From positions 1-64,000 of IMG/VR virus record IMGVR_UViG_3300047160_019164: a stretch of DNA of 64,000 bases, one strand, 5' to 3'. Numbering within the stretch: position 1 is the stretch's first letter; each line of letters starts with the position of its first letter. The notes beneath the pieces were generated by a model. It made no database searches. It had not been told where the DNA came from and saw only the letters and a list, made by a program, of their open reading frames with translations. This stretch comes from a virus. Below, in pieces: positions 2,629 through 62,357 of the stretch. Made by a program: the position numbers and the translations under genes.

Positions 2629-2652
2629 CCACCGCACGGCGCCGTGCGGTGG
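2629..2652. repeat. 24-bp palindrome copy 1 (extended to 38 bp, 2622-2659)
   Basis: tacaagg-CCACCGCACGGCGCCGTGCGGTGG-ccttgta; intergenic. Confidence 0.97.
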
Positions 2653-2750
2653 CCTTGTAGCAACAGACACGGCGCTCGCGGTGGGTTGGGAAGTTCGCGC
2701 CTCCATGCCTACCGCGAGCGCCACCTACTGAGAATGGAGGCGCGAACCTC

Positions 2751-3368
2751 ATGAGTGAAGACGACATCAAGGCCGCAGAAACGATGAACAAGGCGAAGCC
2801 GAAGAGCTTCAACGAAGCACTCGGTGCCTTCAAGGCTGCGGTCACCGAAGAAGACGAGTCAGCGCTCTTGCTCGCCGAACAAGAAGCCCGCGAAGCCGAA
2901 GAGGCTCGAGTCAAGTCGACGGTGAAGGTGCCCGAAGTGACCGACCAAGCGCCGGAAGATTGGATGACGGCGTGCATCCCGACGGACATCAAGTTCCCCC
3001 TCAACAAGCAAGCTCACTTCCTGAAGTTCCGCGCGCAGTGGACCGAGACGCCGACCTTCGGCGACCGCACCTGCATCATGTGGAACCTCACCGACGCCGA
3101 CGAGAAGCTCGCTGCCAAGCGCTGCAAAGGCGACGGTGCCCGCTACGCGCAAGAGCTGGCGAAGCAGATGGTGCGCGCCATCGACGGCGAAAAGGTCGAT
3201 TGGACCAAGGGGCTCGCATCCAATATCGAGCGTTGGTGGAACGCCATCGGCAGCAAGTGCCGCAACATGCTCGTGAACGTCTACCACAAGAACCACAACC
3301 TCAATGCGGAGGAGCAGAAGGATTTTTTCGTCAATTGCTACTCGGTCAGGACGGTGACTACTGGCTAG
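2751..3368 (+). CDS. Tail assembly chaperone (gpG-like)
   Basis: Position between tube and tape measure; slippery T TTT TTC at 3323-3329. Confidence 0.7.
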   Translation: MSEDDIKAAETMNKAKPKSFNEALGAFKAAVTEEDESALLLAEQEAREAEEARVKSTVKVPEVTDQAPEDWMTACIPTDIKFPLNKQAHFLKFRAQWTETPTFGDRTCIMWNLTDADEKLAAKRCKGDGARYAQELAKQMVRAIDGEKVDWTKGLASNIERWWNAIGSKCRNMLVNVYHKNHNLNAEEQKDFFVNCYSVRTVTTG

Positions 3369-3658
3369 AACGTGATCCTGCCGAGACGCAGGACCCCGAC
3401 GAGTTGGAAGAGTGGTTAGCCGTCGTCAGCGTCTACACGGGGCACGTCACCGACGCGTATTGGCGCCTTGTTGTCGAGATCGACATCGCCGAGAAAGAGA
3501 AGTGGCGACGCCGGCAGAAGATGTTTCTTGCACGGTACGGGCGTCAGTCGTTGCTTCAGTGGGATGATGTCGAAGTGGCGGAGTTGGACCACTACACCGA
3601 TGACCTGATCGAGCTACTGAAGCTCGAGAGCCATTCGGACGACCTGAAGAGCGGGTGA
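3323..3658 (+). CDS. -1 frameshift extension of the tail chaperone (gpGT-like)
   Basis: The -1 frame (ORF 2960..3658) stays open to 3658 after an X XXY YYZ heptamer and has no obvious start of its own. Confidence 0.65.
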   Translation, partial: FFRQLLLGQDGDYWLERDPAETQDPDELEEWLAVVSVYTGHVTDAYWRLVVEIDIAEKEKWRRRQKMFLARYGRQSLLQWDDVEVAELDHYTDDLIELLKLESHSDDLKSG

Positions 3659-3719
3659 GACAGCGCGACGCGGGCTCTGCACGACGTAGAGGCCCGCGTC
3701 GCGTACACTCGGAGGGAAG

Positions 3720-5573: not shown

Positions 5574-5606
5574 GCTAAGCATCTCCATTCGGGTTATAAT
5601 TCTTGG

Positions 5607-6492: not shown

Positions 6493-6493
6493 C

Positions 6494-6517
6494 CCACCGC
6501 ACGGCGCCGTGCGGTGG
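6494..6517. repeat. 24-bp palindrome copy 2
   Basis: Perfect copy 1 nt after a TAA stop. Confidence 0.97.
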
Positions 6518-12226: not shown

Positions 12227-12250
12227 CCACCGCACGGCGCCGTGCGGTGG
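12227..12250. repeat. 24-bp palindrome copy 3
   Basis: Perfect copy 1 nt after a TAG stop. Confidence 0.97.
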
Positions 12251-17951: not shown

Positions 17952-17975
17952 CCACCGCACGGCGCCGTGCGGTGG
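17952..17975. repeat. 24-bp palindrome copy 4 (extended to 38 bp, 17945-17982)
   Basis: gactagc-core-gctagtc; the left arm includes the stop codon. Confidence 0.97.
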
Positions 17976-19866: not shown

Positions 19867-19890
19867 CCACCGCACGGCGCCGTGCGGTGG
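19867..19890. repeat. 24-bp palindrome copy 5
   Basis: Perfect copy abutting a TAG stop. Confidence 0.97.
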
Positions 19891-24121: not shown

Positions 24122-24433
24122 ATGCAACGGATCGAGCAGCTCGAATTGCGACGCCAAGTGTTCGACGAGCCCCATGTGGCCAAGAGCACGATCCTGGCGT
24201 TGTACGTGAAGAACGGGCTGCTCTGGCGTGCGGTCGCGAAGGAAGTGGGCGTCAGCTACGAGACCATCTGGCGGTGGGTCAAGCGGCTCGATCTTCAAGC
24301 GCAGGTGTTCAAGCTCCAACGGAAGCACGTCGACGTCATCAAAGCTCGATTGTCTGAATACGGAACCAAAGGAGGCAAGAAGGGGGGCTGGCCGTTGGGT
24401 CGTCCCCGGAAGCCGAAGGAGAAGCGGTCATGA
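24122..24433 (+). CDS. HTH DNA-binding protein
   Basis: AVAKEVGVSYETIWRWVKR; C-terminal GRPRK. Confidence 0.7.
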   Translation: MQRIEQLELRRQVFDEPHVAKSTILALYVKNGLLWRAVAKEVGVSYETIWRWVKRLDLQAQVFKLQRKHVDVIKARLSEYGTKGGKKGGWPLGRPRKPKEKRS

Positions 24434-24968: not shown

Positions 24969-25096
24969 AAGTCCACCGCACGGCGCCGTGCGGTGGACTT
25001 TTTCGTATGAGAATCCCTCACGAAAAAAGAAATCGTCAGGGGCTCGGACGATTTCATGTTGCACAGGGATGCAATGCGGCTTATTGTTCTTCTCAC
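24969..25096 (+). promoter_or_regulatory. Promoter cassette copy A (palindrome copy 7 at 24973-24996, two inverted repeats, sigma70-like promoter)
   Basis: TTGCAC 25059-64, 17-bp spacer, TATTGT 25082-87; near-identical to 50869-50995. Confidence 0.85.
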
Positions 25097-25759: not shown

Positions 25760-25783
25760 CCACCGCACGGCGCCGTGCGGTGG
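25760..25783. repeat. 24-bp palindrome copy 8
   Basis: Perfect copy upstream of the UvrD-like gene. Confidence 0.97.
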
Positions 25784-36819: not shown

Positions 36820-36843
36820 CCACCGCACGGCGCCGTGCGGTGG
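36820..36843. repeat. 24-bp palindrome copy 11 (extended to 36 bp, 36814-36849)
   Basis: aagagc-core-gctctt; intergenic. Confidence 0.97.
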
Positions 36844-43584: not shown

Positions 43585-44114
43585 GCAAAGTGAAGGGGAA
43601 CGGCGGCGAGCGCGAGGTGGCAGCGCTCATCCAACCATGGTGGTCGAAGGTCGAACCGGGTGCCACCTTCGTTCGTACGCCGCTCTCTGGTGGATGGGGC
43701 AAGACGCGCGAAGTGCGCGCCGGCTTCAAAGCAAGCGGCGACCTGATGACCACCGCGACGCAGTTTCCCTTCACCATCGAAGTGAAGCGTCGCGAAAAGT
43801 GGACGTTGGAGCGTCTTCTCGCTGGCAAGGCGAGCCCCGTGTGGCCGTGGTGGAAGCAAGCGCAGACGCAAGCCGACGAGATGGGGCTTACTCCACTGCT
43901 CTGGATTCGAAAGAATCGGCAGCCGTGGCGCATCATCATGCCGCACTCGTTCGCCTTGCTGAAGGGGCTCATCACAGCGCGCTCGCGAGTGCATGTGTGG
44001 ACCTGCTCACCGCATCTCGTCGCGGATCTGTTCGGTGAGCAGGTGCCCGCGATGATCGCGGCGGAGGACTTCCTCAAGTGCGACCCGAAGCGCTTCCTAC
44101 TGACCAAGTGGTGA
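43581..44114 (+). CDS. PD-(D/E)xK Holliday junction resolvase
   Basis: KGNGGEREVA, RTPLSGG, GDL, IEVKRRE. Confidence 0.8.
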   Translation: MSKVKGNGGEREVAALIQPWWSKVEPGATFVRTPLSGGWGKTREVRAGFKASGDLMTTATQFPFTIEVKRREKWTLERLLAGKASPVWPWWKQAQTQADEMGLTPLLWIRKNRQPWRIIMPHSFALLKGLITARSRVHVWTCSPHLVADLFGEQVPAMIAAEDFLKCDPKRFLLTKW

Positions 44115-44140
44115 GTTACAACAAGGTTGGAGGCGCGACT

Positions 44141-44860
44141 GTGAAGAAGAAACTCGAGACTACGAAGACCCCCGAGGCGGCAGCCGTCTATCTCGACCCC
44201 AAGAAGCTCGTCCCCAATCCCAAGAACCCACGTGTCAACGACGCGGTGGTTGACGACATCGTCAAGTCAATCGACAAGTTCGGGTTCACAGTGCCCATCG
44301 TCGTGCGCAAAGCGAACATGATGGTGGCGGCAGGGCATACGCGGTTGAAGGCGGCACTCAAGATGGGGCTCAAGGAAGTCCCGGTTCGCATCCTCGACAT
44401 CACGCAACGTCAGCTCGAAGCACTCACCATCGCCGACAACAAGCTCGGCGAGAAGGCCACGTGGGACGAGACGCTCTTGAAGGAGCAGCTCCAAGGGCTT
44501 CTCAAGGACGATTTCGACTTGAACATGCTCGGATTCGACGGGACCGAGTTGGCAAGCCTTCTCGCCGAGTCGCCTTCGGTGCTTGGTGGCGACTCCATTC
44601 CCGCCGAGGCAGCCAACGGCAAAGGCATGACGGACCCCGGCGCGCCGCAGGGCGATCCGTCGCACGTGCGCATGGTGCAACTCTTCCTCGACGAGACGAC
44701 GCACCCGGTGTTCCTCGAGCGCTGCAAGGTGCTCGGAAAGAAGTGGGGTCTCGACAACGTCACGAAGGTCGTGATGAAGGCGCTCGAGGAGATCGCCAAG
44801 GAACCGAACAAGAAGGGCGAGAAGACCGATGTTCACGGTGCAGCTTCGAACGCAGGTTGA
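44141..44860 (+). CDS. ParB N-terminal-domain protein
   Basis: PNPKNPR, SIDKFGFTVPIVV, AGHTRLKAA, IADNKL. Confidence 0.9.
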   Translation: MKKKLETTKTPEAAAVYLDPKKLVPNPKNPRVNDAVVDDIVKSIDKFGFTVPIVVRKANMMVAAGHTRLKAALKMGLKEVPVRILDITQRQLEALTIADNKLGEKATWDETLLKEQLQGLLKDDFDLNMLGFDGTELASLLAESPSVLGGDSIPAEAANGKGMTDPGAPQGDPSHVRMVQLFLDETTHPVFLERCKVLGKKWGLDNVTKVVMKALEEIAKEPNKKGEKTDVHGAASNAG

Positions 44861-45728
44861 CGAGAAGCTCATCGCGTCACGCCATGGTGGCGATGTCACC
44901 GAAGAGGACATCGCGTTCAAGCCCACGAGCGACATCGCCGTCTACAAGTCCAACGGCCAGCCGCTCCTCTTCGTCTTCAAGCGCGCGGTGTCGCAGAAGG
45001 AGATCGAGCTGGCGCTCCCTGGCTTGAACGCCATGCGGATCACGAGCCCGAGCTTCAAGAGCAATCGCAAGACGTATGGTGGTGGGCCGGCATACCGCAA
45101 GAAGGAAGACGGCACCGTCTCCAACACGACGTACGGCAAGAGCATCAGCAGTGCCATTGCTGGCTACTTCGATCGGTACCCACGTTTCCCGTTCTGTCGG
45201 CAGACGGCGTTCACCGCGAAGGAGGTCGAGAAGTGGCGCGACCTCCAACCGATGATCCACACGTGCGCGAAGCTGTTCAAGGAGCACCTCCCCGAGCGCT
45301 ACGAGAACCAGGACAAGGTCGCGCGCAAGGTGCATCCCGACTTCCAGATCGCAGGGACGCCGTTCAGCACGCTCACGGTCAATCACAACGCGGTGGCCAA
45401 GCTTCACCAGGACAAGGGTGACCTTCCTGACGGTTTCGGTGTGATGACGGTCATCAAAGAGGGCTCGTACGACGGCTTCTCGTTGGTGTTCCCGCGCTTC
45501 CGTGTAGGAGCTGAGCTGGAAACTGGCGACGTGATCCTGTTCGACCCGCACGAGTTTCACGCCAACGTGCCGCCGCGCAATTGCTCGGACGATTACCACC
45601 GCATCAGCGTGGTGATGTACTTCAGGAAGAAGATGATCGAATGCGGCAGTGCTGCGGACGAGATGAGGCGCGCACAGAAGGCGCGCGGCTCGCTCGACAT
45701 CGTTGCGAACGAAGGAGCGACCGAATGA
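44829..45728 (+). CDS. TET/JBP-family 2OG-Fe(II) dioxygenase
   Basis: GYFDR..RFPFCR.TAFT, FSTLTVN, HQD.GD (HxD), H..HAN, RISVVMYFRKKM. Confidence 0.88.
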   Translation: MFTVQLRTQVDEKLIASRHGGDVTEEDIAFKPTSDIAVYKSNGQPLLFVFKRAVSQKEIELALPGLNAMRITSPSFKSNRKTYGGGPAYRKKEDGTVSNTTYGKSISSAIAGYFDRYPRFPFCRQTAFTAKEVEKWRDLQPMIHTCAKLFKEHLPERYENQDKVARKVHPDFQIAGTPFSTLTVNHNAVAKLHQDKGDLPDGFGVMTVIKEGSYDGFSLVFPRFRVGAELETGDVILFDPHEFHANVPPRNCSDDYHRISVVMYFRKKMIECGSAADEMRRAQKARGSLDIVANEGATE

Positions 45729-46819
45729 ACGTCGCGGTATGGCGCTACGGGTTGCCGTTGCAGGTGGAGGCACAGAGCACGGTCGGCGGTGGCAAGATTG
45801 CTGGCGAGCTACTCAAGACGCTCAAGAAGCAAGGTCACAACGTCACGGTCGTGGGTCCGGTGTCGAAGGGTGTCGAGCAGTGGCTCGCGGACGCTGGCAT
45901 CGCTCACAAGCGCACCAACGACTTGAGCACGATGGATGCTGCGGTGGTGCTCACGGGTCCGTTCAATGTGATGTACGGAGACGGTGTCTTCGACACCTAT
46001 CGCCGACTCGCGACATTGAACGGCAAGGCCATCTATGCGCAGTGGGACGTCGCGTTGCCGTTCCACTTCGCCGCGGACCGAAGCACCAAGTTCGCAGCTG
46101 ACTGTCACGTGCGCACTCCACACCTCTTGAAGAACAAGGAGTGGTTCCTCTTCACGCAACTCGAAGAGGAACACGTGCGTGCTAGCAAGGCCGCGAGCAC
46201 GATGTATGCGACGGCACCTTTCAAGCACGTGCGCTGCCTTTTCGAACTGGTCGAGTTGGAGAAGGAGTTGCTCAAACCGGTGAAGAACCCGGTGCCGGCG
46301 ATCGCTTACTTTGGTAGCGACCGCCCCGGTCGCATGCGTGAGCTACTTCGTTGGTTCGGAGCACCCGGTTCGCCGCCCGTGCACCTCTATGGGCAGTGGA
46401 GCGAGAAGTCGCTCGCCGAGTTGATGAAGAACCAAGGCTTCGAACCCAACATCGAGTACCGCGGCAAGATCCCCGAGGGCCGGGTGACCGAAGTGTTGAA
46501 TCAGTACGTGATGACCTTCTACATGGCGGACCCTGCGTACGTGAAGACCGACTTCATCGCGCAGCGGTTCTTCGAGAACGCCATCGCCGGCGTCGCGACC
46601 TACTACAGCGACAAGATTCAGCCGTCGGTGCGGAAGACCGTGCCGAGTGGGTTGGTGCTCGAGGACCCGAAGCAGCTCAAGGAAGCGTTCCAACACGTGG
46701 TGTCGATGCCGTTCAAGAAGCGCCTTGGGCTCGTGCACCAGCACCAGGAAGCGATCCTGAGCTTCGCGAAGAGCCATCCGCACAGCATGCGCAACGCGTT
46801 CGAGCAGGTGCTCTCGTGA
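45725..46819 (+). CDS. T4 beta-glucosyltransferase-like DNA glycosyltransferase (GT-B)
   Basis: YFGSDRPGR and GKIPEGRVTE...ADPAY..DFIAQRFFE resemble, from memory, T4 BGT GGSFRSG.R and GKIPMNMVSE...GDKNYNDNFITLRVWE. Confidence 0.75.
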   Translation: MNVAVWRYGLPLQVEAQSTVGGGKIAGELLKTLKKQGHNVTVVGPVSKGVEQWLADAGIAHKRTNDLSTMDAAVVLTGPFNVMYGDGVFDTYRRLATLNGKAIYAQWDVALPFHFAADRSTKFAADCHVRTPHLLKNKEWFLFTQLEEEHVRASKAASTMYATAPFKHVRCLFELVELEKELLKPVKNPVPAIAYFGSDRPGRMRELLRWFGAPGSPPVHLYGQWSEKSLAELMKNQGFEPNIEYRGKIPEGRVTEVLNQYVMTFYMADPAYVKTDFIAQRFFENAIAGVATYYSDKIQPSVRKTVPSGLVLEDPKQLKEAFQHVVSMPFKKRLGLVHQHQEAILSFAKSHPHSMRNAFEQVLS

Positions 46820-46821
46820 CG

Positions 46822-47505
46822 ATGGCGAGTTGCACGGTCGTCATCCCGGCGCACAACGAAGAGGACACCATTGGTGGACTCGTGGAGTGCGCGCTCGTGC
46901 ACGCGGACCGCGTCATCGTGGCGAACGACTCGAGCACCGATCGAACGGAACAAGTGGCGGAGGAAGCGGGTGCAATCGTCGCTCTGGTTCCGCGTGAGCG
47001 TCGTGGCTTGGTGGGCGTCTACTCGTTCGGGCTCCGGGTCGCCGTTGCTCTCCACCGCACGGCGCCGTGCGGTGGACGTGGGGCGTACGTCTGCGAGATG
47101 GACGCGGGCGGCAGCCACGACCCGCACGAGCTACCCAAGTTCTGGAAGGCTCTCGACGAAGGCGCCGACATCGCCGCGGGCTGTCGCTTTGCGTACGGGG
47201 GCGAGTACCTCGGGTCGTGGCAGCGGAAGAGCCTGAGCTACTTCGGCACCAAGCTCACCAACATCGTGCACGGCACCAAGTGGTGCGACGCGACGAGTGG
47301 CTTCGTGGCGTACAGGTCATCGTCGCTCGATGCGCTCTTGCAGGTCCCCTACAAGTCGACGGGTCACTACTACCAGACGGAGATGCGTCTGCGCGCGCAG
47401 GCCATGGGCATGAAGACGACGGAAGTGCCCATCACGTACAGGAACAGCGGCTCGTCGCTCAATTGGCGTAGCATCCGTGAGGCATTGTCCTTGGTGATGC
47501 GATAG
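46822..47505 (+). CDS. GT2 (DPM1-like) glycosyltransferase
   Basis: VVIPAHNE, NDSSTDRT, EMDAGGSHDP, DATSGF, EVPI. Confidence 0.9.
   Translation: MASCTVVIPAHNEEDTIGGLVECALVHADRVIVANDSSTDRTEQVAEEAGAIVALVPRERRGLVGVYSFGLRVAVALHRTAPCGGRGAYVCEMDAGGSHDPHELPKFWKALDEGADIAAGCRFAYGGEYLGSWQRKSLSYFGTKLTNIVHGTKWCDATSGFVAYRSSSLDALLQVPYKSTGHYYQTEMRLRAQAMGMKTTEVPITYRNSGSSLNWRSIREALSLVMR
47052..47075. repeat. 24-bp palindrome copy 13 (inside GT2, read as HRTAPCGG)
   Basis: Perfect copy in a different reading frame from the TARRRAV copies. Confidence 0.97.
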
Positions 47506-47516
47506 GAGAAGTCACA

Positions 47517-48158
47517 ATGGCGCGAAAGATGGCAGCACACATTGGAGCGACGCCGGTCGTCGTTCATGACACGACGCTCGTCGACGTCGAAAAGCTCAAC
47601 CCCGCGCCGTACAACCCGCGCAAGATCAAACCGGCCATGCTCTCGGCGTTGAAACAGAGCATCAAGGAACAGGGGTTCATTCACCCCATCGTCGTGCAGA
47701 AGAAGGGTATGGTCATTATCGCTGGCCACCAACGAGTGAAGGCGTTGCGTGAGCTGTGCAGCGAAACGGGGCAGCCGCTCCCCAAGATTCCCGCCATCAT
47801 CCGCGACATCGGCGATCGAGTCGCCAAGAAGCTCAACATCACGCTGAACCGCGTCGGTGGTGAATTCGATGCGGGGCTCCTCGGTGACTTGTTGCGTGAC
47901 CTGCAAGACGATGTGCGCCTGACGACCGACGAACTGACTGGCATGGGCATCTCGGCCGACGAGCTGGACGGGCTTCTCAAGCTCGACGATCCGCCGCCCG
48001 AGAACGAAGAGATTCCAACCTTCGGACGCTCGGTCACCATGTCGCTTTCGTTCAGCGACACCAAGATGCGTGACCGCGTGAAGAAGAAGCTCGAGGAGCG
48101 TTCGCGTGTGGAAGGGAAGAAGAGCGGCGAGATCGTCGACAGCCTGATGCGGCGATGA
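47517..48158 (+). CDS. Second ParB N-terminal-domain protein
   Basis: PAPYNPRKI, SIKEQGFIHPIVV, AGHQRVKA, LNITLN. Confidence 0.9.
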   Translation: MARKMAAHIGATPVVVHDTTLVDVEKLNPAPYNPRKIKPAMLSALKQSIKEQGFIHPIVVQKKGMVIIAGHQRVKALRELCSETGQPLPKIPAIIRDIGDRVAKKLNITLNRVGGEFDAGLLGDLLRDLQDDVRLTTDELTGMGISADELDGLLKLDDPPPENEEIPTFGRSVTMSLSFSDTKMRDRVKKKLEERSRVEGKKSGEIVDSLMRR

Positions 48159-50112
48159 AGCCCAAAGAGGCAACTCCGCTGGTGCGCTTCTTCCGTCGAA
48201 TGGCGGAGAAGTTGTTCGGTACGTGGAAGGAAGGCATTGAGCCACCTGACCGGCTTGGCGATATGGTCATTACCTTCGCCAACATGCACCCACACGCTAC
48301 TCGGCAGGATTGGGTTGTCTTCGCGACGTTTCACGCACGCGAAGCGTACCGAAGTGGTTACTTGCGCGGCGTCGAGTACGCCGAGCGCGAAGACGATGAA
48401 CCGGGCCTCGACCCCGATGTCTTGATGGACGCGATGAATGGCCCTTCGTGGCGCGGACGGCCCGTGGGACCGAATCTCGAGCCGCCCGCCGAAGACCTGC
48501 ACGATTGGGAGTGGTATCCGACCGAAGGTCCCACGCTGGAAGGCGACGTGGCTGCACGCGTGCGTGAGTACGAAGACGAGAACCACATTGCGTGGGAGCA
48601 GCTCACCAAGATGGAGAGTGCCGATCAGGAGCGTTCGAAGCGCTGAGCGGCATAAGGGGAGTGGAGGTGCACGATGTCCGAAGGAGACCCGTTGCAGTGG
48701 GCTCGCGCCCTCGGTGCCGGAACTGCGATGGTGATGCACATTCCCACGGACACCGTGGCGAAGGTGAAGGCGTTCTACGACGGTGTGACCACGAAGTTCA
48801 TCAGCCCCATCACCAACGAGCCCGTCAACGGGCCGGTGCTGGTGATGGAGGACGGGAACAGCTTCATGGCAGAGGACGAGAAGTCCTTTCACCGTATGAC
48901 CATGCAACAAGCGCAGTTCTATCGCACCATGCAGCGCGTAATCGCCAACACGCTGCGCGAAGCCGCGCAGCTCCTCAAGTCGCTCGGTATTCCGGTCGAC
49001 GTCGGCGTTTCGTTGTTGGTTGCTACGCTCAAGGCGCAGCTTCGTGTACTCGAAGCCAAGCCCGAAGCCATGCCGCAGACGCTTCCACCCGAGGAGATGC
49101 CCTGATGCCGCCCAACACCAACGTCCCCGTCGCCGCCCACAACGCGCTCAAGCAAGTGATCGACATGTATGGTCAGCTCCTCGTCGAACAGGAGCATAGG
49201 TTCATGATGGAGCGCGCGCAGTTGGAGCTTCAGATCAAGGACATCCACCACACGAACAACGAAGTGACCGCGCGCTGTCTCGAGATCGAGGGGAAGAACC
49301 AGAAGTTGGTCGCCACGAACGAAGGGCTCGCGGCCGACTTCGTGAAGATGACCCAACTGATTCAAGACCTGAAGGGGAGGGTCGACGAGCTGACGGAAGA
49401 GAACGATGCACTGAAGCGCGAGAATGAACGCTACGTACCGTCGCACCTGCGTCGAGAATCCCCTTCCCACGGCAATTACGGGAACGTGGGATCGGGTGGA
49501 TGATGGATGGTCCCAAGGCACTGCCGCCCTTCGTTATCGACGCGGCGCTAGGAAGTGGTGCAATCGATCTCCAGAAGTGGCGCACGTGGATCGATATCTA
49601 CGGTCCGATGTGCGCCGCGTGGCTGGTGAAGCACTTCAGTAAGACCATCAAGCAAGCGGGTCACTTCAAGGTCTTCGTGCCACGACTCGTCGATCTGTCC
49701 TTGCAGAGCAAGCGCTTCCGCTGGTTCAAGCTCGCACTCGCGTACATCCGCAAGTCCACGCGCTGGCGTGTAATCGTGCGTGACGTGTGGCACAAGGACA
49801 CCGACCGCGGCAAAGAATTCGACTTCAAGTGGATGTTGTCGAGGCATCGTCGTGGCTGAAGGTCGCTGGAAAGAGAAGTGGATCCCGCCGTGGGCTCCAC
49901 ATGTCGTCGGTGAGTACGACATGCCGCGCGAATTCCGCGAGGACGGGCTTCCCGAAGCGCAGTGGGTCGAGATGACCTGCACGCACGCGGAATGCGCAAG
50001 CCGGCCGAAGCCGCATTACCGAGTCCCGTGCACCAGTGGCAACGTCCGACAGCACGTCGCGCGGTTTGCACTGGTGCACATGCACAAGGATCCATTCGAA
50101 GGAGGGAAGTGA
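48155..50112 (+). other. Five hypothetical ORFs (48155-48646, 48674-49105, 49105-49503, 49500-49859, 49852-50112)
   Basis: Tiled with stop/start overlaps; no family recognised. Confidence 0.55.
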
Positions 50113-50756
50113 TGAGCGGGAAGTTCGTGGTGATAGAGGGTATTGATGGGTCTGGGAAGACGAGCTTGGTGAAGCTGATGGCGGCGGAGCTGCGGAAGCG
50201 TGGGTTCACCGTGCACGAGACGTACGAGCCCACGCACGGTGAGATCGGCGCGTTGGCGCGCAAGGCGTTCAGTGCGGAGTCGAAACACATCGACGACCCG
50301 CTTGCGTGGGCGAAGCAGGAGATGCTCCTCGCGGCCGATCGCATGCACCATCTGTTTGGTGAAGTGAACCCGGCGCTCGAGACGCACGACTACGTCATCT
50401 GCGATCGCTACGTCGGCAGCGGGTACGCGTACGGCATGGCGTCGCGTCCGAATTCCGTCTCCACGTTGAGCGCGCATGGGTTCCTCTGCGGCATGTATGC
50501 GTTCGCGTGGAAGCCGGATTACTGCATCCTCGTCGACGTGCCGATCGAAGTGGCAGTGGAGCGCATGGCCAAGCGCACGGACAAGACGCGCTACGACGTC
50601 GACGTGGAGTTGCTCAAGCGGGTGCGTAGCATCTACAACAGCGAAGCCGCAGAGCATCGGCACTGGTACACCATCCGTTCCGGTGCCATGACGGCCGAGC
50701 AGACATGTCTCGCAGCGCTCGATCGCACGGGCATCGGCCTGCGCAGAACCTCGTAA
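50112..50756 (+). CDS. tmk: Thymidylate (dNMP) kinase
   Basis: FVVIEGIDGSGKT, EP, AADR..H, VICDRY, KPD motifs. Confidence 0.9.
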   Translation: MSGKFVVIEGIDGSGKTSLVKLMAAELRKRGFTVHETYEPTHGEIGALARKAFSAESKHIDDPLAWAKQEMLLAADRMHHLFGEVNPALETHDYVICDRYVGSGYAYGMASRPNSVSTLSAHGFLCGMYAFAWKPDYCILVDVPIEVAVERMAKRTDKTRYDVDVELLKRVRSIYNSEAAEHRHWYTIRSGAMTAEQTCLAALDRTGIGLRRTS

Positions 50757-50863: not shown

Positions 50864-50995
50864 CGAAAAAGTCCACCGCACGGCGCCGTGCGGTGGACTT
50901 TTTCGTATGAGAATCCCTCACGAAAAAGGAAATCGTCAGGGCTCGGACGATTTCATGTTGCACAGGGATGCAATGCGGCTTATTGTTCTTCTCAC
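50864..50995 (+). promoter_or_regulatory. Promoter cassette copy B (palindrome copy 14 at 50873-50896, extended to 42 bp; sigma70-like promoter)
   Basis: TTGCAC 50958-63, 17-bp spacer, TATTGT 50981-86; cgaaaaagt-core-actttttcg. Confidence 0.85.
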
Positions 50996-51028: not shown

Positions 51029-51253
51029 ATGGACATGCGACGTAGCCAAGCGGCAAAGGTGCTGGATAGTGTGCGCACGATGTTGGCCCAACGTGAGAGC
51101 CCGGAGAAGATCGAGAGGTATCTGTCGCTCCAGTTTGGCATCGAAGCCCTCGTCAAGTGCAGTGGCGAAGCGCACTCCAACGCGCACATCGACAATTGCG
51201 GTTGCTGTGCGCCGCGGTGGGGTTGGGTGGGCGATACCGTCAACATCAAGTAG
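51029..51253 (+). CDS. Small early hypothetical protein (Cys/His-rich)
   Basis: AAGGAGG RBS; first ORF after the promoter; its stop overlaps the ribozyme. Confidence 0.65.
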   Translation: MDMRRSQAAKVLDSVRTMLAQRESPEKIERYLSLQFGIEALVKCSGEAHSNAHIDNCGCCAPRWGWVGDTVNIK

Positions 51254-51304
51254 GTCGAAACGGGCACCAGCCCGTCCGCACGTGATGCGTGCGCTGACGA
51301 GACC
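51253..51304 (+). ncRNA. Type II hammerhead ribozyme 1
   Basis: GGTC-GAAA-CGGGC(acca)GCCCG-TC-CGCACG(tgatg)CGTGCG-CTGACGA-GACC: complete core, three perfect stems. Confidence 0.93.
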
Positions 51305-51840: not shown

Positions 51841-51902
51841 GGTCGAAACCACCGCACGGCGCCGTGCGGTGGTCCGGGCGTAAGGCGCCCGCTGACGAGA
51901 CC
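51841..51902 (+). ncRNA. Type II hammerhead ribozyme 2; stem III is palindrome copy 15 (51849-51872)
   Basis: GGTC-GAAA-[CCACCGCACGGCGCCGTGCGGTGG]-TC-CGGGCG(taagg)CGCCCG-CTGACGA-GACC. Confidence 0.93.
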
Positions 51903-51919: not shown

Positions 51920-52291
51920 ATGAGGACCACGAGCTTCCACGGCCACGCGCTCAACCTCCCGGCCGGCCGACTCGGCCGCACTCAGCGCTACGCGCTGGAG
52001 CACATCTACGAAGAGGGACAGGACTCGACCGATCGTGCCCTCCACCTCCACGGTCGGGCAGCGCGCTACGCTAGCCGCTACGCCACCGCGCTCGCGAACA
52101 TCGTCGACGCGAACCCGCACCTCTTCGCCGGCGGTCCGTTCGGACCGCGCGGCGGCCGCGGGTACAAGTGGATTTGGCACGGACCGATCCAGGCACCCCG
52201 GTGCACCGCGCACGAGGACTGCCGCGCGTGCGTCGACGTCGCGCTCGCGTGCGATCAAGAAGCCACGCGGCATAACCCAAACAAGCGCTGA
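51920..52291 (+). CDS. Hypothetical protein
   Basis: GAGGAG RBS after ribozyme 2. Confidence 0.6.
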   Translation: MRTTSFHGHALNLPAGRLGRTQRYALEHIYEEGQDSTDRALHLHGRAARYASRYATALANIVDANPHLFAGGPFGPRGGRGYKWIWHGPIQAPRCTAHEDCRACVDVALACDQEATRHNPNKR

Positions 52292-52319
52292 GGCGCAGCA
52301 ACCCAAAGGAGCACAGAAG

Positions 52320-53276
52320 ATGCCCACCAAGAAGCCGTTCGATCGTGACAAGTGGCTCGAGGAGAAGCGCGCCAAGGTGCAGGACGCGAAGGAGATGCTG
52401 GAGACTGGGCTCACTGCACTGCGCACCAGCGACGAGTGGAAAGCGTGCATGACTGCCATCGCGAAGAACGCGCGCCTGCGTTACAGCGTTACCCGCTACA
52501 GTTTCGGAAACCAGATGATGCTCGCCTGTCAGTGCGCTGGTGCGAACCGACCGCAGCCCACGAGCGTCGCTACCTTCAAGGCGTGGCAGCGCGTCGGTCG
52601 CAGCGTGAAGAAGGGCGAGAAGGGGATGTTCATCCTCACGCCGAAGCCCTGGAAGCGCGAGGAGAAGCAAAGCGACGGCACCTCCAAGGAGCTGCGCGGC
52701 ATGTCGTTCGGCGTGGCGCACGTGTTCGACATCGCGCAGACCGAAGGTGACGAGCTGCCTGTACCGCCGCGCGTGACGGTGGACATCGAAGATGCCGCCA
52801 CCTTCAGCGCGGACGTGGAGACGCTGCGCGAAGTGGCGCTCGCCATCGACGGCGAACCGGTGAGCGATATCGAGATCCGTGCCAACCAACCGGGCGACCC
52901 GACCAACGCGCAAGGCTGGTACGTCATCTCCACCAAGGCGATCGTCGTGGTGGAGCACCGCAGCCGCGCTCACATGTTCAAGACGCTCGTCCACGAGGTG
53001 GCGCACGCGTTGCTCCATCCCAAGGGCGACCACCACTCTACGCCCGAGCGCGAGGTCGAAGCTGAATCGACGGCGTTCATCGTCTGCCAGGTGCTCGGTC
53101 TCAGTACCGACGCCTTTAGCTTCCCGTACGTCGAGTCGTGGGCGCAGCGCGCGAGCTGCACGTCGAACGACATGATCGCCAAGTGCGGCGACCGCATCAC
53201 CAAGGCGTCGCATACCATCTTGGATGCGCTCCTCGGCAAGCAAGTCGAAGAGCCCAACGAGGAAGAGGCTGCGTAA
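52320..53276 (+). CDS. ArdC-like antirestriction / ssDNA-binding protein with metallopeptidase domain
   Basis: YSFGNQMML, ATFKAWQRVGRSVKKGEKG, VFDIAQTEG, HEVAH, EVEAES.A. Confidence 0.85.
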   Translation: MPTKKPFDRDKWLEEKRAKVQDAKEMLETGLTALRTSDEWKACMTAIAKNARLRYSVTRYSFGNQMMLACQCAGANRPQPTSVATFKAWQRVGRSVKKGEKGMFILTPKPWKREEKQSDGTSKELRGMSFGVAHVFDIAQTEGDELPVPPRVTVDIEDAATFSADVETLREVALAIDGEPVSDIEIRANQPGDPTNAQGWYVISTKAIVVVEHRSRAHMFKTLVHEVAHALLHPKGDHHSTPEREVEAESTAFIVCQVLGLSTDAFSFPYVESWAQRASCTSNDMIAKCGDRITKASHTILDALLGKQVEEPNEEEAA

Positions 53277-56300: not shown

Positions 56301-56324
56301 CGACCGCACGGCGCCGTGCGGTGG
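56301..56324. repeat. Palindrome copy 16 (23/24, inside ORF 56263, DRTAPCGG)
   Basis: 20-bp core intact. Confidence 0.95.
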
Positions 56325-57145
56325 GGAACCGGCCACGCCAGGACTCCGCAAACGCGTCCAGACGCACGAACCGCCCGTTGCTCCGGCCAACGCCCAAAGA
56401 CGCGCCACGGAGGCAGCTATGGGGGGCGCGCTGGCCGATATCGATGCCGACATCGTGCGGCTTAGGGACCAGCTCGGCGTCGGGTTCGCCATCACGGTGG
56501 TGGCGCCCATCAACGCGCCAGGGTTCGAGACGTGTCGTATCGGCTTGAGCTGGCACCGGCTCAGCGCGTTGCAGGCGCACCTCCCTACGGCCACGCGCAT
56601 CACCTTCGTGTCCACGCTGCGCGCGGGACTCGACTACATGTTCGAGTACGAGAAGCGCGTGGACCGCGACGGCGAAGAGGCGACGCACCGTTGGCACCTA
56701 GAACAGCGCACCATCCGCGAGAAGGAGATGGACCGCCTCATCGAAGAGGTGAGGAAGGTGCGTGCGCGATGAGCAGCCCCATCACCATCGATCATTCCAA
56801 GCGCACCACTCCGTGCAACCCGACGTGCCAGCACCCGCTCTGTAAGTGGCTCATGAAGGAGCAACGTATGCAGAAGGCACGGGCACTCGCGGAGCGGATC
56901 AAGAGCGTGAATCTGTACTGCGAACCGGGTGACCACTTCGACAATTCAGTTTCAGCCATCTACATGTGCGTCGACGCGTTGGTGAAGCTCGTCGAGGAGA
57001 GCTAGCGATTGGTCAAGCCGGTAAGTGGGATGACGTCGGTGATCGCCGATCCTGTACATGAATGGTCGAGTAGCCAATGATGACCGAGACGAAACGTCGT
57101 GAGCTCGCGAAGCGGGTGGAGAACGATGTACGCGCGTCCTTCTCG

Positions 57146-57928
57146 ATGAAGATCGGCTCCCTCTTCTCAGGCATCGGCGGCTTTGAGCTTGGCCTTGAGC
57201 GTGCCGGTCTCGGGAAGGTCGTCTACCAGGTCGAGATCGATCCGTTCCGTCGCGAGATCCTCGCGCGTCACTGGCCGAACGTGCGGAGGTACGTCGATGT
57301 CGAAAAGGTCGAGAAGGATGTCGGAAGCGAAGGATACGGGATCGGCTCCCTCCCCCGCGTTGACGTCGTCTGTGGAGGTTTCCCTTGCCAGGACGTTTCG
57401 TCCGCGAACGTCCGTTCCCGGAAGCGTCTCGACGGACGAAAGAGTGGGCTCTGGAGAGAGTTTTTCCGCGTCATCCTCCGTCTCTGCGACCCGAACGTCC
57501 ACGGAGGCTTTCGCCGGCCGATCTTCATCTTCGTCGAGAATGTCGGCTCGACGTGGCGTGACTGGTTGCCCGTCGTGCGGGGCGACCTTGGACGACTCGG
57601 GTACACCAGCCTGCCTCTACGCCTGTCCCCCGCGACTCTCGGCGCACCTCACCACCGAGATCGAGTCTTCGTCGTCGCGTGCTCGTTGGCCGACGCCGAC
57701 GCGGAAAGCGAATTGCTTCGCACCGTCGATGCGGAAGTGGCCCGCATACAGGCGGATGCAGGACGACTTGAGAGTCACTGGAGGAAGCCCTTCGCCGGCC
57801 CTGTTCGAGTGGATGATGGGGTTTCCCGACGGATGGACCGCGTAGCGGCCCTCGGCGACTCCGTCGTCCCTCAGGTGGCCGAGATGCTAGGGCGCGCCGT
57901 TGTGACTTCTTTCGCGATGTTACGATGA
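57146..57928 (+). CDS. C5-cytosine DNA methyltransferase, large subunit
   Basis: LFSGIGG, GGFPCQD, ENV, HHRDRVF, motif X ALGDSVVPQV; no motif IX seen in this frame. Confidence 0.92.
   Translation: MKIGSLFSGIGGFELGLERAGLGKVVYQVEIDPFRREILARHWPNVRRYVDVEKVEKDVGSEGYGIGSLPRVDVVCGGFPCQDVSSANVRSRKRLDGRKSGLWREFFRVILRLCDPNVHGGFRRPIFIFVENVGSTWRDWLPVVRGDLGRLGYTSLPLRLSPATLGAPHHRDRVFVVACSLADADAESELLRTVDAEVARIQADAGRLESHWRKPFAGPVRVDDGVSRRMDRVAALGDSVVPQVAEMLGRAVVTSFAMLR
57318..57845 (+). CDS. Nested alternative-frame small subunit of the C5-methyltransferase
   Basis: GAGAAGG RBS + ATG; WPTP and motif-IX-like P...EWMMGFPDGWT. Confidence 0.75.
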   Translation: MSEAKDTGSAPSPALTSSVEVSLARTFRPRTSVPGSVSTDERVGSGESFSASSSVSATRTSTEAFAGRSSSSSRMSARRGVTGCPSCGATLDDSGTPACLYACPPRLSAHLTTEIESSSSRARWPTPTRKANCFAPSMRKWPAYRRMQDDLRVTGGSPSPALFEWMMGFPDGWTA

Positions 57929-58875: not shown

Positions 58876-59502
58876 TTGGCGCTGGTGAAGTTGGCAGAGT
58901 CCGACCCCGATATGAAGGCGCTCGATATTCTCGAGAAGGTCATGAAGTCAGAGACGAAACGGCGCGAGACTGCGCAGGAAGAGAAGCCCGTGGACAAGTT
59001 CTCGTACAAACAATTGCAAGAAGAGCAACGTGTGTGGGTCGCTCACAACTTCCCTGGTCGTAAATCGCACCAACCGCTCCTCGGTATCTTCGAGGAATTC
59101 GGTGAGCTGGAAGTGGCGCTCAACGACGCCAACGCCGAAGAGATCGCCGACGCACTCGCCGACATCACGATCTTCTCGTCCGACTTCGCGAGTGCGATGG
59201 GGTGGGACTTCGAAGCGGTCATGGCTGAAGTGGACGCGGCGCCGTGCTCGTTGCTGCCGTCGAAGTTGATTCGAACGTTCGGGCAGCTCTCGCACGCCTT
59301 GCTCAAGATGGAGCAAGGCATTCGCAAGAGTGAAGACCACAACGGCAACGCGCGTCGGATGTTGGTGGAATTGCTCCAACACGTGCGCATGGCGAGTGAC
59401 TACAACCAATTCCCATCACTTCTCGATCTCGTCGAGGTCACGTGGTCGCGTGTGCGGAAGCGCGACTGGAAGAAGGACGCAGTACACGCCGGCGAGGTGT
59501 AG
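58876..59502 (+). CDS. MazG-like NTP pyrophosphohydrolase (start uncertain)
   Basis: W..HNF...LLGIFEEFGEL...IADALADITIF; C-terminal V.KRDW. Confidence 0.75.
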   Translation: MALVKLAESDPDMKALDILEKVMKSETKRRETAQEEKPVDKFSYKQLQEEQRVWVAHNFPGRKSHQPLLGIFEEFGELEVALNDANAEEIADALADITIFSSDFASAMGWDFEAVMAEVDAAPCSLLPSKLIRTFGQLSHALLKMEQGIRKSEDHNGNARRMLVELLQHVRMASDYNQFPSLLDLVEVTWSRVRKRDWKKDAVHAGEV

Positions 59503-59503
59503 A

Positions 59504-60325
59504 ATGAACGTTGTCACCAAGCAATCGCAACCGCTCGCCAACACATACGCGGGCTCCCTCATCAAGCTCTTCGATCACGGCAGTATCCAGCTCGTCGACT
59601 CGTGGGGGTCGGACGAGCGGATCATCGAAGCCGCGCGCATGTCGACGGGGAAGGGGTTCCTCGGGTGGGGACCGCGCTGCCCGCACGGGAACAAGTTCGG
59701 CGAGTGCTTGCGAGATGCTGCCTGCGCGTCGGGTACGTGCGAGACAACACCAGGTGACGAGAAGCTCCTCGCGTACCTCTGGAAGAACAAGCACGCAACG
59801 CCGTTCGAGATGGTGGGTGTAACCATCGAAGTGCAGGCGCCCATCTTCGTGTTCCGAGAGTGGCATCGGCACCGTGTGCCGTTCGGCTACAACGAGCTGA
59901 GCGCGCGCTACACGCCGCTTCCCGACTTCAACTACGTGCCCACCGTGGATCGGCTCACGGGTCCGCCCGATGCCAAGAACAAGCAAGCCGGTACGCACGA
60001 TGGGGTTCCGCGCATCAGCGACGAGGCCACTGCGCGCACGTGGCTCGCCGAGCTGCGGCAGCTCTACGAGCACGCGGAACGCGTGTACCAGGAAGGGCTC
60101 GCCATCGGCGTGCCGAAGGAGTTGGCACGTCTCCCGGTGCCCGTGGGTCGCTACAGCCGCATGCGCGCGACAGGCAACTTGCGCGGATGGTTGGCCTTCC
60201 TCGCACTTCGTGACCACAAGTCGGCTCAGGAAGAGATTCGTACCTTCGCGTACGCGCTCGGCGAGCACATCCTGACGCCGCTCTTCCCCCGTTCCATGAA
60301 GCTGTTTAACGAAGGGCGTACGTGA
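59504..60325 (+). CDS. thyX: Flavin-dependent thymidylate synthase
   Basis: AARMS, H.TPFE, REWHRHR...YNELSARY, KELAR..P, NLR, AQEEIR. Confidence 0.95.
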   Translation: MNVVTKQSQPLANTYAGSLIKLFDHGSIQLVDSWGSDERIIEAARMSTGKGFLGWGPRCPHGNKFGECLRDAACASGTCETTPGDEKLLAYLWKNKHATPFEMVGVTIEVQAPIFVFREWHRHRVPFGYNELSARYTPLPDFNYVPTVDRLTGPPDAKNKQAGTHDGVPRISDEATARTWLAELRQLYEHAERVYQEGLAIGVPKELARLPVPVGRYSRMRATGNLRGWLAFLALRDHKSAQEEIRTFAYALGEHILTPLFPRSMKLFNEGRT

Positions 60326-62326
60326 TGGGCGAAGCCAAGGAACGCGCCAAGCTCGGCATCGTCCCCGACGAGACCGCACGGCGCCGTGCGGTGGAGGAGT
60401 TGCCCTTCGAGACCTACGCGCGCAAGCCGCGCGAAGTGCGTGCGCACCAGATGGAGGAAGACACCCTCATCGGGAAAGTGCGGCTGCGGAAAGGCGACTA
60501 CGTTGTGCTGTGGGAGGGACAACTCATGCCCTTCGACCGTGAGACCTTCGAGATGGAGTATGCTCGCAAGAAGGAGACCTCTGATGATCGTCAAGACGAA
60601 GAAGGGGTATGGCGCATCGCGAAGCTCCGCGGAGACGCGCTATGAGCATTCGCTGGCTCGTCAACGCCTCCGGCATCTCGCACCTGTTCGGCCTGAACAT
60701 GAGCGTGGAACGTGGCCGCGCGGTCGAACGGTCGGCATGCGGGCGCGTGAAGTTGGCGGAGGATATGGAGCCTGAACAGGCTGGCGACCTACGATGCGCG
60801 GCGTGCTGGCACGTGGTGGAGATGGGGACGATGCGATGATCAAACGGAGTGAGCTGCTACGTAATGGTCTGGCGAAAGTGTTCGCTCCAGGCACGCGCGC
60901 AGACACCATGACAGCTATCTGCTCGGCGTTCGGCGCGCCCATGGAAGTCGAGTATCGTGGCGAGCAACTCGTCATTACGCCGGCGACGTCCAATTGGTTC
61001 AACGACGCCATCGCCGAGGCCGAACGCGAAGAACGATTGGCCGCCGACGACCGCGTGCGATGTGTCCTACTCGACCAGATTCTAGACGGCGACGAACGCG
61101 CGTTGACCATCGTGCCGGCCGAGATGTGGACGCGGCTGTCCGACGTTCGGAACGGCACGCGTGACCAGATTCGGCGCGAGGAAGCGGCGAAGGCGCGACG
61201 TGGCGTGACGACCCCGCTGGACGTGGCTATGGGTGACACGCTGGAACGGATGGGTTCGCATGTTGGCATCAGGCGCGAGCGCATGTGGGTGCCTCGCCCG
61301 CTCGAATTCAATCTTGACGAAGCCGATGCAAACAAGCCGACCCCGCCGGCGCAAACCCGCATGGAGACAGACGACGAGTTGCGCGAGCGGATTCGCACGG
61401 CTGAATTGTATGCCATCGAAACGGTCGCAACGCGTCCACAGGCAACGGTCATGCGTCCGGACCCGCTGACTGATTGGGTTCGCCAGCAACGCGAGGCGCG
61501 CATCCAGGCTCGCATGCGCGAACGAATCGACCACGACTACCCTGGTCTACTGGCGCAGGCCGATTCGGGCGACCCGATTGCGATTGACAGAGTGCGCACC
61601 ATCGTGGCAGGCATGCCGCGGGCGGATTGGTGATGACCAACTACGCGCGACGGAGGAACGCACGATGAGCGACTGCCAAGCCACCCCACCGCGTGCCGAC
61701 TGCTGCGGGCCCTACGGTTCGAGCGACGGCCCGCACGATTGCTGCCCTACGTGCGTGCGCATCCACGAGGAGAAGCCGCACCTCGACTGCCAGTGCGGTG
61801 ATGCGGACTGCCCAGGCCGCGATCGCTCGTTCCTGATTTCGGAGGTTGCTCGCTATCAGGTCAAGAGCGAGAGCGGTGACAAGAACCTCTCCTCGAATGA
61901 CCTGACCGAAGAGGAAGCCAAGAAGCGTTTGGCGGAAGTCGAATACTTCAAGAAGAAGACGAATGGCGCTCGCGCATTCGCCAAGAAGTGAGTAGCATTC
62001 CCATGCTCGCATTCATCAAGCGCATCGAAGCCAAGGTCGACGAGTCACTGCACTTGCTCCGACTGGTCGTCTCGATGCTCACCAACGAAAGGCAATTCAT
62101 CATGAGCGCCCTCGACGATCTCGAGAAGCAAGTCCAGGCCAACACCGACGCGGAGGCTTCGGCCGTCGCGCTCATCAAGGGGCTCGCCGAGCAGGTGGCG
62201 CAGGCCGCTTCCGACCCGGCCAAGGTCACCGCGCTCGCTGCCAAGCTCAAGGCGTCGGCCGACGCGCTCGGTGCTGCGGTCTTCGCGAACACGCCCGCGG
62301 CGCCCGCACCGGCGACCCCGGCCTGA
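60325..62326 (+). other. Five hypothetical ORFs (60325-60645, 60642-60839, 60836-61633, 61665-61991, 61988-62326)
   Basis: Mostly tiled with stop/start overlaps. Confidence 0.5.
60371..60394. repeat. Palindrome copy 17 (22/24, inside ORF 60325, ETARRRAVE)
   Basis: 20-bp core intact. Confidence 0.95.
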
Positions 62327-62333
62327 TGTTCTC

Positions 62334-62357
62334 CCACCGCACGGCGCCGTGCGGTGG
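62334..62357. repeat. 24-bp palindrome copy 18
   Basis: Perfect copy 3 nt before the tRNA. Confidence 0.97.

Follow-up and report, generated by a model that had tools for sequence, protein, structure and literature searches.

The genome of the Cluster O mycobacteriophage Corndog is dotted with 17-bp dyad repeats, TGTTCGGNNNCCGAACA, which have invariant arms, number more than 30 copies and lie in about one third of cases within genes (PMC4351075). When described in 2015, the repeat was found neither in the host nor in other phages, and the phage itself was not obviously temperate; the authors inferred a dimeric DNA-binding protein with a role other than the control of transcription initiation, the function being unknown at that time (PMC4351075). 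A later account of this function was not found in the literature. The stoperators of the Cluster A phages also consist of dozens of near-identical sites, dispersed over the genome and mostly in short intergenic gaps, at which binding stops transcription elongation, and the sites and the specificity of their repressor evolve together between lineages (PMC6550527, PMC9283540). On the IncP plasmid RK2, the protein KorB is loaded at its OB sites, from which it slides and so exerts its action at a distance (PMC11790492). The subject of the present analysis is a dispersed palindrome of 20 to 24 bp, with the 20-bp core ACCGCACGGCGCCGTGCGGT, in the IMG/VR virus record IMGVR_UViG_3300047160_019164, a record of 92,463 bp that is rated complete, derives from an uncultured soil phage and is referred to below as G000. 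The window, that is the whole stretch of DNA in which the palindrome was first noticed, comprises bases 1 to 64,000 of this record. The array of palindromes is a real and strongly non-random feature, of a kind common to a family of phages, and is kept at the level of the DNA.

Within the window the core is matched exactly 18 times, with no mismatches, and no further copy appears when up to two mismatches are allowed, while 100 dinucleotide-preserving shuffles gave no match at all, such that none is expected against the 18 observed. All 18 stand at the positions given for them in a first-pass annotation of the sequence, and its statement that 14 of them are perfect 24-mers, the remaining four (33633, 33768, 56301 and 60371) being imperfect in the outer 2 bp only, was borne out as well. 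Its division of the copies into 11 intergenic and seven coding is roughly right, six being clearly within genes, whereas that at 56301 stands at or just upstream of a gene start. When the exact-match scan is extended to the whole record, 25 exact cores are found together with one single-mismatch copy at 80264; isolated half-sites of the palindrome were not found, and a Chi-like single-strand signal was rejected since the half-sites never stand alone. In Logan contigs from four other soil runs, in which sites 23309, 25760 and 33768 are covered, there are zero differences from the record, and this match between independent contigs excludes an assembly artefact as far as contigs can show. Beyond the phage, the core occurs as four single copies only in prokaryote genomes (596 Gb), as six single copies only in JGI metagenomes and once elsewhere in IMG/VR, in an unrelated contig. 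Since only single copies occur outside the phage, the palindrome is not a repeat of the host, nor is it a widespread element.

Relatives of the phage were gathered through primase and capsid searches, which return contigs of about 60–100 kb with a conserved gene order; the set compared here is made up of twelve whole records and G000, and IMG/VR contains at least 36 loci of family members. Nine lineages of these ~90-kb myoviruses each possess a perfect palindrome of their own, between 16 and 30 bp in length and present in 7–26 copies. The words are CCACCGCACGGCGCCGTGCGGTGG in G000 (26 copies), CTGAACATCGATGTTCAG in G001 (7), GGAAACCCGGGTTTCC in G002 (16), CGAAAGTCGACTTTCG in G004 (9), ACGGATGATCGATCATCCGT in G006 (17), AAATCCAATTGGATCGATCCAATTGGATTT in G009 (20), TGGAACTCGAGTTCCA in G010 (24), GGGAACCCGGGTTCCC in G014 (20) and CCGTCGGTGATCGATCACCGACGG in G015 (14–19), where G006 represents a clade that includes G003, G007 and G008. 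In every lineage the exact centre of the word is CG (as TCGA, CCGG, GCGC or ACGT) and the dyad symmetry is unbroken through that centre, whereas the arms vary. The capsid tree places related yet distinct words in sister phages and includes one whole clade without the trait: the sisters G010 and G014, for instance, have GGAAC arms in common and differ in their centres, while G009 and L130 share GGATCGATCC. A copy at the 3′ end of the polymerase gene, or in the corresponding C-terminal tail, is found in seven of the nine lineages, in each case in the spelling of that lineage. No palindrome lattice was found in the four relatives G005, G011, G012 and G013. Two of these have repeats of other kinds, namely, in G005 (L099–L103), an imperfect hairpin, GGAACCGCGCGATTCCAAAC, that occurs seven times with both strands represented, and six copies of the promoter-like TTGAC..N..ATAAACCGAAACCC in G011 (L176–L180); a repeat in G013 was rejected as a lattice, as it consists of collagen-like coding repeats.

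The spacing of the copies, which averages about one palindrome per 3.5 kb, is more even than chance would allow. In G000 the coefficient of variation (CV) of the gaps is 0.53 as against 0.95 in simulated placements (P = 4e-4), and 0.57 for the window alone (P = 0.009); moreover, the largest gap, of 7.9 kb, is smaller than random placement gives (P = 0.016). The same evenness is seen in all eight genomes subjected to this comparison, with CVs of 0.35–0.64 against about 0.93 in simulation, and in five of the eight the largest gap is also too small (P ≤ 0.021), the other values being 0.06 in G014, 0.15 in G001 and 0.40 in G015. Density and evenness are kept across the lineages, and exact places are not.

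Conservation within a lineage points in the same direction. In the G006 clade, whose members are 94–97% identical, none of 260 palindrome columns has changed, whereas the 100-bp flanks differ in 83 of their 2601 columns (P = 2e-4), which agrees with the suggestion in the first-pass annotation that the palindrome is a site under selection at the DNA level. Orthologous sites are kept in 13 of 13 cases among G006, G007 and G003, and copies differ only where whole segments differ. Alignment of the genes that contain a copy with their homologues shows that the copies in the primase gene and in the SbcC/Rad50-like gene are accommodated without insertion: at 23309 loop residues of the primase are replaced at a length that is unchanged with respect to most homologues, and the SbcC/Rad50-like copy is gapless against nine orthologues.

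With respect to genes, and by crude gene calls, 57 of the 156 sites in the family lie well inside a coding sequence, a proportion that ranges from 14 to 50% of copies per lineage. These copies are nearly always found in linkers of hydrophilic character and little conservation, and each lineage prefers a single frame for them, which reads TARRRAV in G000, TDDRSSV in G006, GTRVP in G010 and G014, and VGDRSPT in G015. The other 99 sites are outside genes, in genomes that are 83–89% coding by the gene calls (62% in G009, for which the calls are poor). Indeed, 37 of the 156 begin within 10 nt of a preceding stop codon, a crowding that is seen in every lineage and that in G001 and G004 extends to the TGA stop forming part of the palindrome. 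As regards the stops themselves, those next to a G000 palindrome (within 10–12 nt) are TAA or TAG in 10 of 12 cases, in a genome where TGA accounts for 72 of the 109 called stops (66%; binomial P about 7e-4).

The reading that we favour, to which a probability of a little under one half (about 0.48) may be given, is that the palindromes constitute a lattice of recognition sites that would be read on duplex DNA by a symmetric, homodimeric and highly sequence-specific factor, different in each lineage. A protein is the presumed reader, and what appears to matter is that no part of the chromosome be further than about 4 kb from a site. Since the reader would differ between lineages, it is most likely encoded by the phage; the perfect symmetry, continued through what would be the loop of a hairpin, suggests a dimer on duplex DNA, as the loop of an RNA hairpin need not be self-complementary. 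The output that we prefer would be a bidirectional protein roadblock or insulator, which would punctuate transcription at the ends of genes much as stoperators do. This preference derives from the crowding of the sites past stop codons, from the position of several of them just upstream of a promoter-like motif and from the occurrence of two in terminator-plus-promoter modules. About equally possible would be a loading grid, akin to KorB at OB, from each site of which a protein could slide or spread over a few kb. A wider proposition, which is rather doubtful, is that many lytic phages have a general system of chromosome addresses, in which a very stringent dimeric reader, specific to its lineage, would dock on a palindrome lattice without gaps beyond about 8 kb, and the whole viral chromosome would be marked or organised by that lattice; were this to be true, the system could serve self-recognition, the punctuation of transcription across the genome or the guidance of post-replicative base hypermodification, and the present family would offer the best comparative model of it.

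Several observations weigh against a lattice read by a protein on duplex DNA. In eight genomes the spectrum of mismatches is of an all-or-none kind, each genome having its exact copies, between zero and three near-copies and then only background; this is unusual for operators and would be in keeping with copying by some mechanism or with an enzyme of strict recognition. Positions mostly turn over between lineages, with a sharing that, in the pairs compared, is typically 2–6 times the uniform expectation and that is nil in one pair. The tight abutment on stop codons has no obvious reason under a DNA reader, and the roadblock is an attempt to account for it. Moreover, five G000 copies have locus-specific extensions of the arms, by 4–9 bp beyond the 24-mer, where chance would give about 0.1–0.2; these extensions, together with a copy that forms a ribozyme-like stem and copies directly before tRNA genes, show a preference for RNA contexts that tolerate or require a hairpin. 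Finally, no gene family was found to track the presence and absence of the palindromes across the 13 genomes by BLASTP, all-against-all clustering and iterated hidden Markov models. The best partial phyletic patterns are those of the gene at 48674–49105 (present in six genomes with palindromes and in none without), of that at 24430–24933 and of the UvrD-like helicase gene, and the candidate readers are a small protein with an HTH_23 domain (24122–24433) and the family of 24430–24933, the gene for which is usually followed by a palindrome. The gene at 34052–34675, which stands beside the best-conserved site and near a RecA/UvsX-like gene (36898–38103), encodes an all-helical protein of 207 residues that is kept in most relatives. 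Its structural model (predicted local distance difference test, pLDDT, of 80) has as its best Foldseek match the recombination mediator UvsY of T4, a weak match with E of about 0.05 and a template-modelling (TM) score of up to 0.77 on the target; with such a fold the protein looks unlike a reader of DNA sequence, and it was set aside as one.

The evidence from RNA contexts brings forward a different explanation, which we regard as unlikely, in which the palindromes act as RNA or single-strand hairpins at the ends of transcripts, whether as terminators, protectors of 3′ ends, processing sites or analogues of the repetitive extragenic palindromes (REPs), homogenised by copying and harmless inside genes as ribosomes unwind them. 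The crowding within 0–10 nt of stops in every lineage speaks for it, as do the arm extensions, the two G000 copies with A and T runs before a promoter-bearing repeat, the copy that serves as stem III of a hammerhead-like element and the two copies 3–6 nt before tRNA genes; palindrome-free relatives, moreover, have ordinary hairpins at some of the equivalent places. Set against this are the more than one third of copies (57 of 156) that are well inside genes, the primase, polymerase and Rad50-like genes among them, and the T run that follows just two of the 26 G000 copies (24973 and 50873), the other 24 lacking one, so that the copies at large do not qualify as intrinsic terminators. The 16-bp versions, furthermore, would give stems of just 6 bp, the self-complementary loop that a hairpin could do without is present in every lineage, even spacing with an upper bound to the gaps is unexpected for transcript ends, and no Rfam family is matched. 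The constancy of the central CG amid variable arms, and the same all-or-none exactness, which is that of strict-recognition enzymes, could also be taken to indicate a transaction on dyad or cruciform DNA, for example the seeding of recombination-dependent replication by programmed nicks or breaks, for which even spacing would be suitable, or the action of a recombinase or resolvase on the CG. The phage does encode a T4-like recombination set (RecA/UvsX-like, the UvsY-like fold by the best-conserved site, Mre11/Rad50-like and RusA-like). The same recombination genes occur in the palindrome-free relatives, however, no candidate site-specific nuclease or recombinase tracks the trait, the contigs show no evidence of ends at the sites and arms of 8–12 bp would be short for cruciform extrusion or for attack by SbcCD, all of which makes such a transaction improbable.

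The all-or-none spectrum has equally to be considered in terms of a selfish miniature element, which would place copies of itself in the loops of hairpins, at gene ends and in tolerant protein linkers and would owe its uniformity to recent or ongoing spread. In this regard, the outer arms resemble the result of insertion at the tips of older hairpins, the ribozyme stem included; the 24 bp amount to eight codons and are free of stops in every frame; the G010 primase copy coincides with a loop insertion; and two homology breakpoints between G006 and G007 lie within 30 bp of a copy. Against these stand the absence of target-site duplications, there being no direct flank repeat of more than 2 bp at any of the 26 copies, and the retention of all 13 orthologous sites with zero gain or loss in shared DNA of 94–97% identity, in which the flanks decay and the copies do not. 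The primase and SbcC copies, as described above, came without an indel, the trait goes back as far as the family itself, with the site at the polymerase end respelled together with all the others, and even spacing needs selection; nor did Pfam and PHROGs scans of about 94 G000 proteins find a transposase, a REP-associated tyrosine transposase (RAYT) or a recombinase. A selfish element is consequently held to be quite improbable, and the first-pass alternative of a miniature element that had spread very recently is not supported for a feature that is old, common to the family and stable in position between close relatives. Another of its proposals, of a reader of the ParB type at parS-like sites, fares no better and is in our view very improbable. 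Under this explanation the ParBs of the phage would load at the palindromes and spread, for example to bring a TET/JBP-type dioxygenase and glycosyltransferases (GTs) to phage DNA only. A cassette of the order ParB_N / Tet_JBP / GT / GT2 / ParB_N is indeed present (44078–48158), both of its ParBs (44078–44860 and 47517–48158) end in a strand-helix-helix that, judged from the alignment, could be a ribbon-helix-helix, and the density and evenness of the sites resemble those of KorB-OB, where a cytidine triphosphate (CTP) clamp loads at palindromes and slides (PMC11790492). ParB-like genes, as detected with a family profile, are nevertheless present in all four palindrome-free relatives and absent from the complete genome of G010 with its 24 sites. 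The putative DNA-contacting strand at the C-terminus is nearly constant across lineages whose palindromes are unrelated, SHVRMVQLF being common to ParB1 of G000 and G015, and VTMSLSF in ParB2 of G000 corresponding to VTLSLAF in G006. Of the nine lineages with palindromes, only three have the dioxygenase, Pfam detects no helix-turn-helix (HTH) of the ParB type, and the published ParBs of the phage dioxygenase class are activators of the enzyme on double-stranded DNA with no evident DNA-binding domain (PMC13229309). Because the ParB-like genes do not track the sites and their contact strand does not vary with them, the palindromes are not filed here as parS or OB sites.

Taken in order along the window, the first of the perfect 24-mers (2629–2652) is intergenic, with arms that extend to a 40-bp dyad. 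The second (6494–6517) begins 1 nt past a TAA stop, the next gene starting 17 nt downstream, and the third (12227–12250) begins 1 nt past a TAG stop and abuts the start of a baseplate-wedge gene. The fourth (17952–17975), again 1 nt past a TAG stop and with arms that extend to 38 bp, is upstream of the gene for an SNF2-like helicase, directly past the TAG stop of which comes the fifth (19867–19890). Orthologues of this helicase also have a palindrome upstream, within 450 nt in G002, G006 and G010 and at about 490 nt in G001. The sixth copy (23309–23332) is in frame in the primase gene, where it encodes PTARRRAV just before the EG motif of the TOPRIM domain. The seventh (24973–24996), which is followed by a T run, forms the stem of a hairpin like that of an intrinsic terminator and has a ~100-bp repeat next to it; the eighth (25760–25783) is just upstream of the likely start of a UvrD/PcrA-like helicase gene. 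All eight of these are perfect 24-mers. The ninth and tenth (33633–33656 and 33768–33791), both imperfect in the outer pair and 135 bp apart, are in frame in the same Pro/Ala-rich linker in the C-terminal part of the DNA polymerase.

In the remainder of the window, the eleventh copy (36820–36843) is a perfect 24-mer, intergenic and with arms to 38 bp, and has GCGGCATAA 15 nt downstream of the 24-mer. The twelfth (42094–42117) and the thirteenth (47052–47075), both also perfect, are in frame, respectively in the SbcC/Rad50-like gene and, as HRTAPCGG, in a GT2 glycosyltransferase domain. A perfect 24-mer between an A run and a T run, with the shape of a bidirectional terminator, makes up the fourteenth (50873–50896), beside which is the second promoter-bearing repeat, and the fifteenth (51849–51872), perfect as well, forms the whole of stem III in a hammerhead-like three-way junction at 51841–51902. 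The next two are imperfect in the outer pair: one (56301–56324) is 37 nt past a stop and, by the frame plot, coincides with or narrowly precedes the start of the following gene, and the other (60371–60394) is in frame near the start of an open reading frame for 107 residues. The last (62334–62357) is a perfect 24-mer, 7 nt past a TGA stop, and a tRNA gene (62361–62436) follows it after 3 nt.

Some of these surroundings have features of their own. The ~100-bp repeat is found at 24997–25095 and 50897–50995, in each case directly behind a palindrome, so that a terminator-plus-promoter module occurs twice; it holds TTGCAC-17-TATTGT, a good promoter of the sigma-70 type. Hammerhead-like elements of type II layout (GGUC, GAAA, stem III hairpin, UC, stem I hairpin, CUGACGA, GACC) are present at 51253–51304 and 51841–51902, and both fold to the expected three-way junction, at −23.2 and −36.5 kcal/mol; neither has a match in Rfam at E ≤ 1, a search in which one tRNA is the sole match above threshold. 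Two tRNA genes, at 62361–62436 and at 67549–67623 of the genome, each stand 3–6 nt past a copy of the palindrome. The first is called by ARAGORN as a selenocysteine tRNA with anticodon UCA, while a canonical 7-nt loop would give CAU, which leaves the anticodon ambiguous; the second is tRNA-Thr (UGU). The motif GCGGCATAA has 11 copies on the + strand and none on the − strand, located at 19947, 24106, 30163, 36859, 48647, 52267, 58350 and 62521 in the window and at 67427, 69607 and 72927 of the genome, in most cases with a start codon 10–60 nt further downstream. GCGGCAT(G)A in the relatives shows this strand bias too (43:4 in G001 and 52:17 on the coding strand in G006), and the motif probably serves the family as a promoter or transcript-start signal of its own. 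Control of promoters as the main role of the palindromes was rejected, GCGGCAT being found within 120 nt downstream of only about 10% of sites (15 observed as against about 5 expected).

The phage itself has a G+C content of 62%, and nearly all of its genes are on the + strand. Tail sheath and baseplate genes are present, together with replication genes for DnaB-like, SNF2-like and UvrD-like helicases, a primase and a family A polymerase of 1280 residues with an HNH-like insert, recombination genes for RecA/UvsX-like and Mre11/Rad50-like proteins and a RusA-like resolvase, and others for thymidylate kinase, ThyX, a C5 cytosine methylase and an ArdC-like protein. The Pfam and PHROGs scans of the ~94 proteins returned no integrase, ParA, recombinase, transposase, RAYT or repressor family, the matches of repressor type being confined to the one small HTH_23 protein and to weak matches. 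The polymerase (30182–34024) is long in comparison with the ~790–880 residues of its counterparts in G001, G003 and G005, with the HNH-like segment at residues 438–486 and a C-terminal extension of about 330 residues, made up of the linker with its two palindromes and then a small domain common only to G000 and G002. The early region includes an anti-restriction-like protein (52035–53276) with an ArdC N-terminal domain and an M78 peptidase-like domain, and a protein resembling sigma-70 region 2 is encoded at 27978–28643. The cassette at 44078–48158, of which the GT is putative, forms a hypermodification set with the thymidylate kinase, C5 cytosine methylase and ThyX genes (49962–50756, 57077–57928 and 59330–60325), which fits the published class of ParB-dependent 5-methylpyrimidine dioxygenases (PMC13229309). 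As to relatives outside the family, megablast with 15 kb of G000 gave no close phage in GenBank, where the UvrD-like helicase, the sole gene searched against GenBank phages, has a best match of about 33% identity, in SPO1-like phages, and a search of viral contigs with the helicase gave no near relatives. The closest homologues of the primase (P0002–P0005) are about 60% identical; P0002 had no match in prokaryote genome contigs, and P0005 has an intein-like insertion of about 150 residues directly after a zinc-finger cysteine (alignment columns 70–220).

What these phages add to the single case of Cluster O is, in the first place, an inherited trait in which all copies of the word change in concert, even from one sister phage to another, and which has repeatedly been lost; in the second place, a density and an evenness that are maintained under turnover of positions, with copies that are all-or-none. 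The nine cognate words and the four lineages of loss amount to a covariation panel with which the reader may be sought, and the negative result for ParB warns against taking every such lattice as an analogue of parS or of KorB-OB. Should the reader be a roadblock or a loader, it would constitute a compact, orthogonal DNA-binding module with a specificity of 20 bp, and the lattice would be a new layer of phage genome organisation.

Among known systems, the REPs and bacterial interspersed mosaic elements (BIMEs), with their associated RAYTs, are species-specific iterated palindromes just past stop codons that act both as RNA hairpins and as protein-binding sites; they are imperfect and extragenic and number in the hundreds, whereas the palindromes here are perfect and in many cases within genes, and no RAYT (IS200/IS605-like) family is among the scanned proteins. 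HIP1 of cyanobacteria is an iterated palindrome of 8 bp that arises by substitution and also occurs within genes; its spacing is not even. The phiC31 repressor binds conserved inverted repeats (CIRs), and phage P1 has dispersed C1 operators, each a set of about 17–20 highly conserved intergenic sites across a phage genome for one phage regulator; both phages are temperate with a known repressor, and the P1 operators are asymmetric. To our knowledge, neither set has been reported in essential genes at regular spacing.

The first-pass annotation did not recognise the palindrome as a described element. This is true of its sequence, which is new, but not of its kind, since the 17-bp dyad repeats of Cluster O had been described (PMC4351075). 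Both are dispersed and invariant inverted repeats in tens of copies (25 exact and one near-exact in the 92 kb of G000), with a minority of them coding (6–7 of 18 in the G000 window); both occur alongside a gene with a ParB-like domain and glycosyltransferases; and both are absent from host genomes and unrelated phages, the G000 word being found elsewhere only as single copies. They differ in that the Cluster O repeat has two 7-bp arms about a variable 3-bp spacer, where the present dyad is perfect and without spacer over 20–24 bp, or 30 in a relative. The phages and the word are likewise unrelated, those here being ~90-kb soil myoviruses of nine lineages with different words and an evenness shown statistically. 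The stoperators, in turn, are asymmetric 13-mers oriented with transcription, and the immunity repressor that binds them, in a temperate phage, does so as a monomer; the present sites are self-complementary dyads, many of them in genes, and neither a repressor nor an integrase is found in the ~94 scanned proteins of G000. RK2 has 12 OB sites in its 60 kb, a density of about one per 5 kb. What KorB-OB has in common with the present case is the scattering of palindromes over a replicon of tens of kb, some of them far from promoters (PMC11790492). The OB site is 13 bp, however, and its reader is a ParB-family CTPase with an HTH, while in the palindrome family the ParB-like genes do not track the sites. 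For each of the three systems at least one defining feature is lacking here; the closest described case is that of the Cluster O dyad repeats, with the stoperators and KorB-OB as the best mechanistic analogues.

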